In this document: piece after piece, positions 23,607 through 59,664 of the stretch | Layout of the letters: each line of letters begins with the position of its first letter | How positions within the stretch are numbered: position 1 is the first letter of the stretch | Source: Eledone cirrhosa | Lineage: Eukaryota | Reading direction: 5' to 3' | NCBI GenBank assembly: GCA_964016885.1 | Contig: OZ024742.1 | Span: 32,488,001 to 32,552,000 of the forward strand | DNA: 64,000 nucleotides | Notes under the pieces: generated by a model | Databases searched by the model: none | What the model was told of the DNA's origin: nothing | The model's input: the letters and a program-made list of their open reading frames with translations, nothing else | Made by a program: the position numbers and the translations under genes

Positions 23607-23910
23607 ATTTATTTTAAAATAACAGAAGGCTGGACTCGGAATATTCTTATAATGTTGCAAAAACACAATACGTATTTCTATGGCCTAGTTACATCATCAG
23701 ATCGTGATGTAATATTTTTGGTGTGGATTGCAAAATTAGTTAATTAGTAATCCAGTTATCGATCAACTAATTTTGTAACCCCCACCTGATGACATCACCA
23801 AAGTATTTCGCCATGATCTGATGATGAAACTGGGTCATAGAAATGCGTATTGTGTTTTTGCAACATTAAAAGAATATTCCTAACCTGGTCTTCTGTTGCT
23901 TTTAAATATA
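23607..23910. repeat. Imperfect inverted repeat (~115-bp arms), each arm carrying a hammerhead-like core
   Basis: CTGATGA...GAAAtacgtaTT on - (23664-23706) and CTGATGA...GAAAtgcgtaTT on + (23812-23855); stem I is weak. Confidence 0.7.
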
Positions 23911-25214
23911 TATATATACAGCCCACACTGTAAAGTGGACATGTAGGCGCCACGGAAAAAAAGCACCCAGCACTCACTGTAAATGAGGTTGGTGTTAGGA
24001 AGGGCATCCAGCTGTAGAAATCAAGCCAGAATCAGTTCCAGTATGAGTAAGAGGTCAGTCGACCGGACACTGCCCACAACAGGACAACCCGTCTAACCCA
24101 TGCTAGCGTGGAAGAACGGACATAAAATGGTGATGATGATTATGACGATGATGATATATATATATATGGATTAAAGCAAAATATAAACAAAGAATTGATA
24201 CAGTGGCAGAAATTGTTTGCTTAAAACTTTTAATCTGTGCTAATAATAAATATTTGCTCTACAAGTTTATATATATATATATATATATATATAAAGACTA
24301 AAATCCAGAGAGGACTTGACAAGGGTTGTGTGTGTGTATATATATATATATATACACACACAACCCTATTCAATATATATGTATATATATGGTGGCTGCC
24401 AACTCGTTTTCAAGTACGGCCACTACTTTATATCCATGTAGGAGAATCCCTACCGATGCCCTGAACGAGTGTGACTTTTTAGTCCAGCCAGCGACTTGAA
24501 AACTCTGGTACAAACACTACACTTGTGACAATTATTGACACATAATGCTGGGCCCATGGTACCATGTGATGACAAGTGTAGAGAGATCTCCAGATATAAA
24601 GCAATGCCTGTGCCGTGAAGCTTTTATAGTGAGCAAAGGCACTGCACAAAGCCAGTCCCACTCTCTTAACCAAGATGATATTTACCAAAAAGAAGAACAA
24701 GTCAACATCATTGGATACCATCAGGGTTGCAGGTGTTATATCAGAGTTTTCCTTCTCCTAGAATTCTGCCTTGACAAAGGCTAAGGGGTCATCTCTCCCG
24801 GTGATTTTGGATGGCCATTGACTCTTAAGAGCTCTTTGCCCTTTGACAGGTTTTGTTTTTAGTCCTGCAGGATGTCCAAAATCACCCTTCTCACCAAGAA
24901 ACCTTGGTGGGGTTGCCAGTTTAGTCGCCAACAACCCGACTATGGGACAGGTTGTACTGGGATACATGTTACCAGTAGCACCAACTGGTGACCTGATATA
25001 CGTATATATATACGTATATATATATATATATATATATATATACATACATACATATACACACACACACACACACAACCATTATCAAGTCCTCTCTGGACTT
25101 TAGTCTTTGTACTTATTATTACTACTGTATGTATGTATGTATGTATGTGTGTATGCGTGCGTGCGTGCGTGCGTGCGTGCGTATATATATATATATATAT
25201 ATATATATTCATAC

Positions 25215-25800
25215 AGGTAGGTATGGGTGCATCTTATCTACAATGCTGTTCAATATTTTTCTGGAAGAGATTGTGATCAGAGCAGCAGATGGCTTTCAGG
25301 AAGCTTACAGATACACGGACTAGTGGTGAACAATCTCAGGTTTACTGACATCAACACCCTAGTAACTGGAAGTGAAAAAGAAAATGGCAAATCAACAAAT
25401 GAAGTGAAGACAAGAACTGGGATAGTGATGGCATCTTTGAACAGACTGAACAACATTTTTAGAAGAACAATAACTTGAGCTTCAAATCCAAACTGAGGCT
25501 AAGGAAATCAATAGTGATATCAATGCTACTATCCGGATGTAAAATCTGGATAGATGAGGAAATGAACTGGAGGACCAATGTATTTGAGATGAAATGATAT
25601 CGAGAATTGCTGGAGGTGAAATGGTAGGACAAACATACCAATGAATGGGTTTGGAACAAGTGGAGGAAAAATTGGTGCAGCACAGAAATCCCTGCTAAAG
25701 ATAGCACAAGATCGCAATCTAAAGTATTTTGGACATGTAATGAGACATATATGTGACGAATTGACAGAGTCATTAGAATGTCAGAATTCTTTGAGGTGTT
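25215..25800 (+). mobile_element. Highly degenerate RTE-like LINE fragment
   Basis: GCILS.MLFNIFLE, NNLRFTD.., FEMK.YR.LL, LKYFGHVMRH remnants with many disruptions. Confidence 0.65.
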
Positions 25801-26708
25801 CATTCCAGCTCTCTGATCACTGAGATAAAATCCCATCGAGACCATATCTGCCTTTCATCCATTCAAGGTCAATAAAAGATATGCCAGTCAAGTGCTAGGG
25901 TTGATTCTTCCTCACTTCCATTCTCTCATTTTCTATCCTTCTCTGGAACAAATTTGCAGTATTCAGATCTGGAGAGATGGGCTCCGCCAGGTTTTAGAAT
26001 GCCCAAGAAACACTGTATGTCAATACGGCATCCCTACAAATCCCTTGGGATTTATGTGACCATATGTAGTGAGACACCCCAAGGATTTGAAACTTGCAAG
26101 CACTGTAATACAGAGGGCAGCAAGAAAGGTGCTAGATAAGCAACATTTGGGGACAGGACTGTTCAGAGGAAATTGCAGAAGGTATCCATGGACCCTTGGG
26201 GTCTATGATGATGATGATGATTGATATATATATATATATATATATATATATATATATATATATATATATATATATATATATATATATATATATAATTGGA
26301 AACTGAAATTTCAGTTTAACAGAAGTCTATTTGCATGACACGTCTTGTTTATTGAATGGCTGAAAGCCAATTTTAATTAGATAACATAATCCACTATTGT
26401 GTAACCATGTGGCTTGACTCCAATAAAATTAGCTCATCATATGTCTGTATATATATATACACACACACACACACTAACTCATGCTTACGCACGTGCTCAA
26501 GTATAGCTCTTTACAAAACGGTTTTTTTTCCATTTCAGGTAGACGCCTACCATCATCCACTTTTCTAAAAAACAAATCATACACAAAACGCCAGCACCAA
26601 CAGTTTTGCAAGAGATGTCAACATGAATGGACCTGTTATTTTTATCTAAAGACATTTTTTCCAATTCCAACCCACCCGTCCCCTCAATCTATTTTATTTC
26701 TCATTCTT

Positions 26709-26744
26709 TCTTCTGATGAAGGACTAGCGTCCGAAACATTAAGA
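26709..26744 (+). ncRNA. Minimal hammerhead ribozyme motif (stem III mutated)
   Basis: tctt-CTGATGA-a-ggac(tagc)gtcc-GAAA-ca-TT-aaga. Confidence 0.7.
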
Positions 26745-26883
26745 CCCTCTTCCTGCTATATCAAGCGTTAACCTAATATATCCCTTCCATATACTGTACC
26801 GATTGTGTTGTTATTTCTGTTTACCTTTTACATACATATATATATATATAGGAAAATGTGTGAGATCCTTTGATACAGTTAGG

Positions 26884-27039
26884 TATATTTGAAAAAAAGG
26901 AAAAGAATGACTTCACTTGTAGTGTTAAAATTTTTATGATTTAATGTTAAAATATATTATAATATTATATTATAACATTAAATCATACATTTTTTAACAC
27001 TACAAGTGAAGTCATTCTTTTCCTTTTTTTCAAATATAT
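26884..27039. repeat. Fold-back palindrome, ~66-bp arms, next to (TA)n
   Basis: tatatttgaaaaaaaggaaaagaatgacttcacttgtagtgttaaaa... is mirrored at 26973-27039. Confidence 0.85.
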
Positions 27040-58245: not shown

Positions 58246-58296
58246 TTTTATTATACATATTTCGGATGTACAACAGTACGTCCTCATCAGACAAAA
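58246..58296 (-). ncRNA. Minimal hammerhead ribozyme motif
   Basis: ttttgt-CTGATGA-ggacgtac(tgtt)gtacatcc-GAAA-tatgta-TA-ataaaa. Confidence 0.8.
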
Positions 58297-58449
58297 TATA
58301 ATGATACATGACATACCCTGAGATGTTAAATGGTTAAGATTTAATTAAGGTAGTGATTAACCTAAGAGAAAATTTAACATTTATACCCTAATAATGAGAA
58401 GAAAAAATATATATATATATACAATATATTAACAAATGGAAACTATATT

Positions 58450-58515
58450 TATTTTATTATACATATTTCAAGGGCCACCAAGGCAAATTATGGTGCATTT
58501 TCATCAGATAAAATA
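58450..58515 (-). ncRNA. Hammerhead ribozyme motif (left arm of an inverted repeat)
   Basis: tattttat-CTGATGA-aaatgcacca...tggtggccctt-GAAA-tatgta-TA-ataaaata. Confidence 0.7.
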
Positions 58516-58597
58516 CAATACAGATTTGTTTTTCCAACCGTTAAGGTTGTTTTTTTCAGGGTATGTCAATATCTATTTATAAAACAAATCTGTATTG

Positions 58598-58663
58598 TAT
58601 TTTATCTGATGAAAGCGCACCATAATTTGCCTTGGTGGCCCTTGAAATATGTATAATAAAATA
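58598..58663 (+). ncRNA. Hammerhead ribozyme motif (right arm of an inverted repeat)
   Basis: tattttat-CTGATGA-aagcgcacca...tggtggccctt-GAAA-tatgta-TA-ataaaata; 8-bp stem I. Confidence 0.75.
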
Positions 58664-59664
58664 AATATGGTTTTATAAATATAGTTTCCATTTGTTAATA
58701 CATTGTATATTTACTCCACTAATCTGTTGAGTGCTTTATATCAGTTATAAAATTGTTTAAGCTTGTTGAATCCCAACAAATTAAATATAACCTCTGCATA
58801 TATATATATATATATGATCATCATCATCATCATCATCTGCTTTCCATGCTAGTAATGGTTAGAGAGGTCATCAACAAACTAGGGCCAGTACTCAGGGTTA
58901 CAGGCCCATAGGTAGGCTAAGAGCCAGCTTCTTACATACATTCTCACGCCTTACTAATTACTCAGATGGACTGGCAGAAAATGTAAATGTAGTGAGTGAC
59001 CAGTGGCAACAGTCACTACAGTCACTTGGCAAGGGAATGGAGAAGATATAGGGCTTTGAGAAGACACTTAAGTCTCGATGAGTAGCAACCCCTCTAGTGC
59101 TCTCTAAAATACTGTGTTAATGTTGGTGCCAATATATCTATGTATATGTGTGTGTATCTTATTACTTTATTGTTCCAACTCCCTTTTGGGGTAGAGTTAA
59201 TTAGGTGGGTGCCGGCTGCTATTTCTAGCAGACGTAGCATTCGTTAAATGTCCAGCCTTTGGCCTCTCTTCTGAGACCTATACCACGTGAGAATTTCTCC
59301 CTCCAGAGAAATATTCACTTTCTTACGGTATGGGTCAGGATACAGTCCACCTAATAAGGGGTTTCCTGATGGTTCGACAGCCTCACATCGTTGCTGCACT
59401 TCTCTGGTGCAACAAAGTCAGAAAACAGCACAGCTCCCATGACTTTCGGAAACACTTTTTCACGCTCAGAGTTGCTGAAGCATGGAACAAACTACCAAAA
59501 CTACACCCGATGTCCCTCCTCCATACACATGCACACATGTATTTCATGACTTGTAAACTGTTCATTTTTCTGACATTTGTACATTATTCTATGTACTATT
59601 CATGCACGCTTGATGAGTTGTAGTGCACCTGAACACTGTATACAATAATTTCATTATTATAAGA

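Follow-up and report, generated by a model that had tools for sequence, protein, structure and literature searches.

Short inverted repeats of the Eledone cirrhosa genome as Penelope-like element insertion products whose fold point likely marks the RNA start

In this work we have analysed seven short inverted repeats found in a 64,000-nucleotide stretch of the genome of the cephalopod Eledone cirrhosa (contig OZ024742.1, positions 32488001-32552000, one contig of a 3.0-Gb assembly; hereafter the window). These hairpins are almost certainly insertion products of Penelope-like elements (PLEs) and, taking all the data together, they are probably best explained as short PLE products in which two complementary DNAs (cDNAs) were primed near the 5' end of the element RNA, ran off that end and were joined. 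Their fold point likely marks the start of the RNA and not, as an earlier note made from the letters of the window had proposed, a place where reverse transcription stalls at the hammerhead ribozyme (HHR). The same note had placed the origin of the hairpins in PLEs and their formation at insertion, and both ideas hold according to the one-sided tails, the copy-specific junctions and the link to elements encoding a reverse transcriptase (RT) and a GIY-YIG endonuclease (EN).

Results

Inverted repeats are present at 23607..23910, 26884..27039, 28058..28171, 39711..39924, 43380..43496, 46088..46258 and 58417..58710, with self-reverse-complement identities of 0.79, 0.93, 0.86, 0.75, 0.97, 0.91 and 0.89, respectively. 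Their ends had been drawn too short, as each of the seven units has a one-sided extension of 33-153 nt, which is the tail of the PLE literature. The (TA)n said to abut the units is found at one end only, and the other arm continues into a family-specific tail and then into the next microsatellite. The tail of 23607 (23454..23606, - strand) opens with ACTC..GAGTGC and ends in a TA run, and related tails are found in three other loci (L028, L172 and L087); 26884 has a 33-nt tail (26851..26883, - strand) that is also present in L202, L206 and L273, and the tail of 46088 (45958..46087, - strand) is shared with L189. Those of 39711 (39925..40024) and 58417 (58711..58798), both on the + strand, are followed by (TA)n, and in the copies of 58417 these ~90 extra nt, which end in (TA)n, belong to just one of the two arms, either the left or the right. 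The sequence gtactcaatac...tagtagagtg is indeed common to 28058 and 43380, but it is element sequence, the start of their tails (27996..28057 and 43303..43379, both on the - strand), and not a flank. An ACTC..GAGT(G/A)C motif opens the tail in five of the seven units (control 0.0007). A relaxed RCTC..GAGY was found in 8 of the 26 tail clusters of an unbiased sample consisting of eighty 10-kb stretches spaced evenly across the genome (800 kb), compared with 1.4% in controls, and its occurrence in both the A-T and the G-C form (four clusters each) suggests that the tail starts with a conserved stem. The end of the 28058 tail (27996-28015), on the antisense strand and in many copies, resembles a tRNA T-arm/B box.

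A complete type I HHR was found in 58417 and, for 28058 and 46088, in copies longer than the window units; that of 23607, 39711 and 43380 is partial or decayed. Both arms of 58417 (family 58) carry complete folds, at 58606 (+) and 58507 (-), and this outward-facing pair represents two of the four cores detected in the window by a strict scan that included a stem test (mean 0.14 and maximum 2 in 50 Markov-shuffled windows). A full core on both arms had also been read in 23607, an old head-to-head pair of PLE ends with arms 79% alike; the core letters are there, at 23818 (+) and 23700 (-) and both facing outwards, but they failed the stem test. Regarding the two units in which the axis was placed just 5' of the GAAA, the tail-less arm of 28058 (family 28) does begin just before it, with TGATGA retained on the tailed arm, whereas the axis of 46088 is located within HHR stem II, and the entire HHR is present in its longer copy L189. 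The GAAAC motif reported inside two other units was confirmed: the near-perfect hairpin 43380 (family 43; 97%) contains the 3' half of the HHR, GAAAC-stem III-GUC, and 39711, whose left arm is internally deleted, contains a decayed core with a GAAAC-GCGC-GTC stem III on the right arm. No HHR core was found in 26884 or in five other copies of it that were retrieved, and its PLE origin is proposed from its layout alone. An Rfam scan of the window gave no hammerhead among the best 150 of 192 matches, none of which reached the gathering score, and the matches among these 150 were microsatellite-driven microRNAs. Head-to-tail tandem arrays are absent at all seven units, the copies being inverted pairs or solos. 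A solo arm without a tail, belonging to a family that is related to 58 and carrying a complete HHR fold at 58290 (-), is located at 58227..58401 (- strand) and had not been listed before.

In the unbiased sample we counted 119 short palindromes in 67 clusters, ~1 per 6.7 kb, which by scaling corresponds to ~445,000 in the genome. The TA-microsatellite context proposed from the window extends to this sample, in which 62/119 palindromes have TA at an end (control 17%), 8 of them at both ends and 54 at exactly one. A microsatellite is found 15-140 nt past the other end in 44 of these 54 (control 21%), and the full tail layout is therefore present in 44/119. HHR cores are also enriched and face outwards, as 19/119 palindromes have an outward CUGANGA..GAAA..UH core, compared with 4 inward ones and 3% in the control.

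The structure of the hairpins was analysed in families 43, 28 and 58 (40, 53 and 61 hairpins, 154 in total, part of them picked by resemblance to the window units). Exactly one arm carries the tail in 139 of the 154, and 132 of these 139 have distinct junctions. In 70 the tail-less arm is the one that extends further 5', in 33 it is the tailed arm, and in 36 the two are equal within 5 nt. Each family has two fixed 3' end sites, and the 3' ends are also bimodal in unbiased DNA. Among 30 copies picked by their tail alone the arm cut points vary widely, and solo and long arms occur too. Hairpins of different families can abut with only a TA run between them (L027, L042, L056, L091, L120, L173, L177 and L273), which suggests that the same microsatellites are reused. 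Any target site duplication would be masked by these microsatellite flanks.

A separate class of hairpins copied whole, either as DNA transposons similar to miniature inverted-repeat transposable elements (MITEs) or from master hairpin RNAs, would account for the fixed outer ends in TA sequence, the very high copy number and the few junctions that recur (7/139 are not distinct, and L202 resembles 26884). However, symmetric terminal repeats around a fixed internal sequence, as in MITEs, are not what we found: the ends are asymmetric, with a one-sided tail and mostly distinct junctions, solo arms are common, and the family ends are continuous with RT-encoding elements. We consider this explanation very improbable.

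The junctions also bear on the mechanism put forward in the earlier note, in which reverse transcription would stall at the folded hammerhead and the cDNA would snap back. Equal arms, found in 20/37 family-43 hairpins, are what it would produce. Nevertheless, with the tail-less arm the longer one in 70/139 hairpins, a simple snap-back primed at the tail is impossible unless the centre was later trimmed, and it provides no cause for the copy to halt exactly at the second 3' site (site 2). Furthermore, two subfamilies (L285/286 and L290) and one contig of run X1 have the same junction, with a single unpaired base at its centre; snap-back would need a wider loop than 1 nt, but the pairing of two cDNA ends fits this junction. 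In family 43 a diagnostic variant is common to both arms in 15/18 hairpins (mean 3.5 and maximum 9 in 2000 shuffles), and the arms may have been templated by either one or two RNAs.

That the palindromes are assembly or amplification chimeras has an almost negligible probability. Although none of the pieces listed spans the whole 43290-43494 stretch, raw Illumina reads from two other samples share opposite-strand joints at several places (43371/43440, 32 + 111 reads; 43403/43439, 15 + 13 reads; 1-3 start places each), the arms have accumulated up to 21% divergence with age and the ends are fixed at biological sites. Family 43 is represented by ~19,500 and ~20,200 raw reads in these samples, and at the tail-less site the loose read ends consist of (TA)n. 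The fall in read depth beyond the axis of 43380 was not used, as reads match either arm.

The same kind of hairpin is made by an intact young family with thousands of copies, not represented among the seven units, that encodes both RT and GIY-YIG. It has a 4204-bp tandem period, with ORF1 and a 775-aa RT-EN frame, and its copies form pseudo-long terminal repeats (pLTRs) by a partial tandem arrangement in which the tail, containing an AC-rich stem-loop, continues directly into ORF1. The GIY-YIG domain is C-terminal, preceded by CNDNRCGTC, and scored over its cut-off (E 3.2e-6), while RVT_1 (E 2.9e-6, 27.6 bits) was under its cut-off of 29.6. In the first 100 places of 2722 exact matches to its HHR region there are 29 head-to-head pairs within 12 kb and only 1 tail-to-tail pair; the spacing goes from 128 to 8396, and the 11 pairs at 128-160 are micro-hairpins. 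The head-to-head layout of this family spans ~0.5 to 16 kb, and the junctions of 13 loci selected for being head-to-head pairs are found anywhere from ORF1 to the endonuclease. The largest is a palindrome whose arms differ in their end point, before the tail in one and beyond it in the other. We do not claim that both arms are tailed in any copy of this family, as BLAST 3' ends at 4204 can extend into TA arrays.

That 16-kb palindrome (G000:C26:20691900-20708100; L153 and L154) contains four PLE copies, two per arm, its arms are 98.6% alike over 7.9 kb, and its flanks are several hundred bases of degenerate (TA)n. In L154:3154-6875 the ORF1 (a 496-codon open frame without any Pfam match) overlaps the RT-EN frame by ~90 nt, and the ORF1 frame has a T TTT TTA heptamer, a canonical -1 slippery site; no strong stem was predicted downstream of it (-3.4 kcal/mol). 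Frameshifted ORF1s in PLEs are mentioned in the Fig. 1 legend of Craig 2021 (PMC8557442).

With regard to the window families, the long family-58 copy L157 has ~1.4 kb of non-coding sequence upstream and then decayed frames that by eye are RT-like (YRDD) and GIY-YIG-like (NYVGST and CNC..CPL..C), and from these motifs family 58 appears to be the 3'-terminal part of a PLE with decayed RT + GIY-YIG. No parent ORF was seen for families 43 and 28, the other two families covered by this search. Diverged fragments of PLE RT frames were observed in L032:1-1093 (-), L159, L160, L161 and L179, those of L160 and L161 with 43-48% identity to the young family, which indicates that several autonomous PLE lineages coexist. 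The hairpins had been suggested to be a distinct class because of their small size and lack of ORFs. This does not stand: families with ORFs show a single layout over lengths from ~100 bp to 16 kb, so that micro and giant head-to-head forms are one series and no separate class is needed.

What sets the position of the axis was analysed through the 5' ends of the arms. In the young family (30 HHR-bearing arms, the first places on contig C1) 14 arms start at unit positions 3940-3952, another 14 have scattered starts within 2501-3672, and the remaining 2 start at 3926 and 3982. As the unit has a TATA box from 3911 and the HHR core from 3986, the pile-up is located 29-41 nt beyond the TATA box, which is about where an RNA polymerase II start is expected, and precedes the core by 34-46 nt. 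Of the 16 distinct arms of a second family, 8 end no more than ~30 nt upstream of a AAATGGCG motif, ~60 nt upstream of the HHR core of this family, and the other 8 continue into GCGCATGCGC/CCGGATGT-type sequence; the motifs around this stop are presumably promoter elements, NRF1/ETS-like upstream and YY1-like downstream. Family 58 has its peak ~85 nt upstream of the core (ref 1200-1208), and in two unbiased hairpins the limit is ~70 nt upstream of it. In families 28 and 43 (15 and 36 arms per 800 kb) the references start at the 5' limits and extension was judged from individual copies; 10/15 family-28 arms start at 5-6, at the 5' strand of HHR stem I, and 28/36 family-43 arms at ref 2-19, inside CUGANGA. 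Read depth over 17930-18280 was discarded as an indication of the start site, because the dips at 18062-18073 and elsewhere resemble seeding or filter effects.

The clustering of axes near the HHR is therefore real in several families, at 0-90 nt from the core, and this family-dependent distance is expected if the axis follows the RNA end. The limits of families 43 and 28 and several unbiased hairpins with the core within ~10 nt of the axis could be taken as a sign of stalling at the ribozyme. However, arms that stop 34-46, ~70 or ~85 nt before the core do not fit it, and 26884 has the same layout without a core. The HHR cut site was considered as the RNA 5' end and rejected, since 0/36 family-43 arms start near it (ref 48), a count that argues against stalling as well. 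As the cause of the hairpins, snap-back at the ribozyme is improbable.

Family 43 deserves separate consideration, as by scaling it reaches 134,800 arms and ~70,000 insertions. Despite this number CTGANGA is retained in no more than 8 exact genome matches; all 8 lack the 5' strand of stem I, and no upstream sequence is common to any of them. The family has at least 8 variants, and the loose read ends past the axis are mutually discordant (agreement 0.41-0.47). Moreover, the shortest template of the PAc element that is active in vitro has its 5' end within the HHR, 6 nt upstream of the cleavage site (PMC11167929). These data raise the possibility that family 43, and perhaps family 28, are self-propagating non-autonomous micro-PLEs reduced to the smallest RNA that the protein requires, whose 5' limit would be a functional minimum rather than the start site of a parent; this would be compatible with the run-off of two joined cDNAs, but we give it only tentatively. 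In fact, the parent search used an exact 29-nt pattern, which a diverged parent would escape, and no convincing internal A/B boxes of RNA polymerase III were found by eye. The 5'-end mode of family 43 (ref 7, 10/36 arms) is the A of TGAGTC, which resembles an initiator, as the start site of a parent would. A more specific version is that the axes map PLE transcription starts and that family 43 would be a self-propagating micro-PLE of 145 nt, comparable to a short interspersed element (SINE), with an RNA starting inside the HHR core, not self-cleaving and recognised through the RCTC/GAGY stem; we regard this as conceivable but doubtful.

The window also contains a 5'-truncated copy of the young family at 16238..18318 (+ strand), with the RT + GIY-YIG frame at 16238-17620, the TATA box at 18040, a probable RNA start at ~18071, the HHR core at 18115 and 3' sites at 18270 (tail-less end) and ~18318 (tailed end). 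A long degenerate (TA)n array (18311-18642) is found directly after its tail, and similar arrays are located at 19850-20156, 21428-21763 and 54179-54424. Other palindromes absent from the earlier list are two decayed, AT-rich ones at 31849-32170 (74%) and 48382-48782 (69%), and one of other origin at 55801-56280, formed by two copies of a common short repeat placed face-to-face across a (GAT)n/(TA)n spacer. Minisatellites are present at 1309-1871, 9608-10523, 12113-13031, 34952-35717, 44144-44621 and 60408-61407 (periods of 48, 61, 30, 44, 36 and 48, respectively), and the 48-nt unit at 1309 resembles part of a short repeat dispersed through the window. Transposon-like frames were observed by eye at 37960-38811 (+), 46714-47358 (-), 49448-51896 (-), 18644-21220 (-) and 41439-42735 (-), several being RT fragments similar to those of long interspersed elements (LINEs) and two being unassigned.

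Discussion

All these data suggest a mechanism in which the PLE RNA would start in the pLTR and contain, in this order, the 5' end, the HHR (0-90 nt in), site 2, site 1 and ORF1. Both nicked strands of a TA-rich target would prime cDNA synthesis, one at each site. Priming on the 5' pLTR copy would give cDNAs of 60-290 nt that stop at or before the cap, and priming on a read-through 3' copy would give the long elements. The two cDNA 3' ends would then anneal through a few bases and be filled in, and the outcome would be head-to-head arms with a one-sided tail in which either arm can be the longer. The proximity of the axis to the HHR would only reflect the position of the HHR, a short distance downstream of the start site. 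We infer that the cDNAs run off at the RNA end, a step that we find rather likely, and the joining of two cDNAs is somewhat favoured by the junctions.

The alternative advanced by Arkhipova 2013 (PMC3846280), self-priming on an antisense transcript, would also give a head-to-head repeat, and the short palindromes at the junctions, noted in that paper and present here, are consistent with it. However, it predicts neither 5' limits at sense-strand promoters nor two fixed 3' sites, and later in vitro work demonstrated sense-RNA priming on both strands (PMC11167929). In our opinion antisense self-priming is decidedly improbable as the origin of these hairpins.

Several observations weigh against the run-off and joining of two cDNAs. 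The variants shared by both arms fit one RNA or two RNAs of one source alike, the identity between arms in family 28 is about the same within hairpins (0.907) as between hairpins (0.895), and the partner arm is the best match in only 8/29, 3/42 and 11/45 cases. In addition, the central bases of palindromes are lost after insertion, and such losses could explain some of the junction variety and some of the cases behind the finding that either arm can be longer. Regarding the start sites, that of the young family is deduced from promoter motifs and end pile-ups, and a few of the 30 arms used are two arms of one insertion; the family-58 peak has no TATA box at -30; and upstream sequence is absent from every copy seen of families 43 and 28, whose 5' limit could have another cause. 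The frames of L157 gave no Pfam match and no tblastn match to the young-family RT. Finally, an intact outward core is present in only 19/119 palindromes and the pattern of TA at one end is missing in 65/119, so many palindromes are something else or unassigned.

As a class these hairpins are ordinary PLE ends, and the useful part is the mechanism. How the inverted and tandem arrangements of PLEs originate, a question left open together with the microsatellite bias in Craig 2021 (PMC8557442), becomes directly testable through the young family and the stops of its short hairpins at the predicted start site, and if the axes do map start sites this would settle how PLE inverted ends form. Furthermore, the layout provides an annotation rule for a large part of the unclassified repeats of this genome. 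Transcribed hairpins would be double-stranded RNA and may feed small-RNA or editing pathways.

The twin priming of LINE-1 is similar in that both target strands prime cDNA and a 5' inversion results. The two segments are mostly non-overlapping in that case, unlike here, where one region is copied into both arms, starting at two fixed sites.

Most of the layout has been described for endonuclease-containing PLEs. According to Arkhipova 2013 (PMC3846280) they have head-to-head pLTRs with a one-sided tail, junction palindromes and solo pLTRs, inverted pLTRs are listed as a PLE feature in a curation guide (PMC8969392), and the general layout and the (TA)n bias are given in Craig 2021 (PMC8557442). 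Units of this kind (PMC3846280, PMC8557442) share with ours the head-to-head ends, the tail on one arm, junction palindromes or microhomology, an HHR in the pLTR and (TA)n; the published tails measure 30-40 nt, compared with 33-153 nt here, where the arms are often only 55-200 nt long and without an ORF. The young family is similar to the Neptune/Nematis PLEs in its motif and its (TA)n, these having a CX2-5CxxC linker before GIY-YIG and a microsatellite bias (Craig 2021, PMC8557442). In Schistosoma mansoni, dual minimal HHRs with a palindromic loop 3 have been found on opposite strands 100-700 bp apart and ascribed to truncated PLEs (Cervera and de la Pena 2014, PMC4209133); our hairpins match them in size and in the arrangement of the strands, and the available part of that account includes no analysis of tails, junctions or 5' limits.

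The PAc element of Anolis, a Poseidon PLE, offers biochemical support, as its protein nicks and extends both strands of an AT-rich target and initiates reverse transcription at a pair of internal sites delimiting the tail, HHR cleavage being unneeded (Frangieh 2024, PMC11167929). The AC-rich stem-loop in the tail of the young family is a further similarity; in the accessible sections of that study the inverted junction is left unexplained and no run-off at the 5' end of the RNA is described for genomes. The non-LTR retrozymes (bioRxiv 10.64898/2026.07.22.740005) are, like our hairpins, short, non-coding and derived from PLEs with a type I HHR, but as far as described they are head-to-tail tandems with complete HHRs, whereas here we find inverted pairs or solos that often contain half an HHR. 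In the literature searched, which excluded supplements, Repbase and subscription papers, we found no earlier run-off explanation and no account from a cephalopod. In comparison with all these systems, the layout is already in print, and what stays of interest is the model of run-off at the start site and the apparently parentless family 43.

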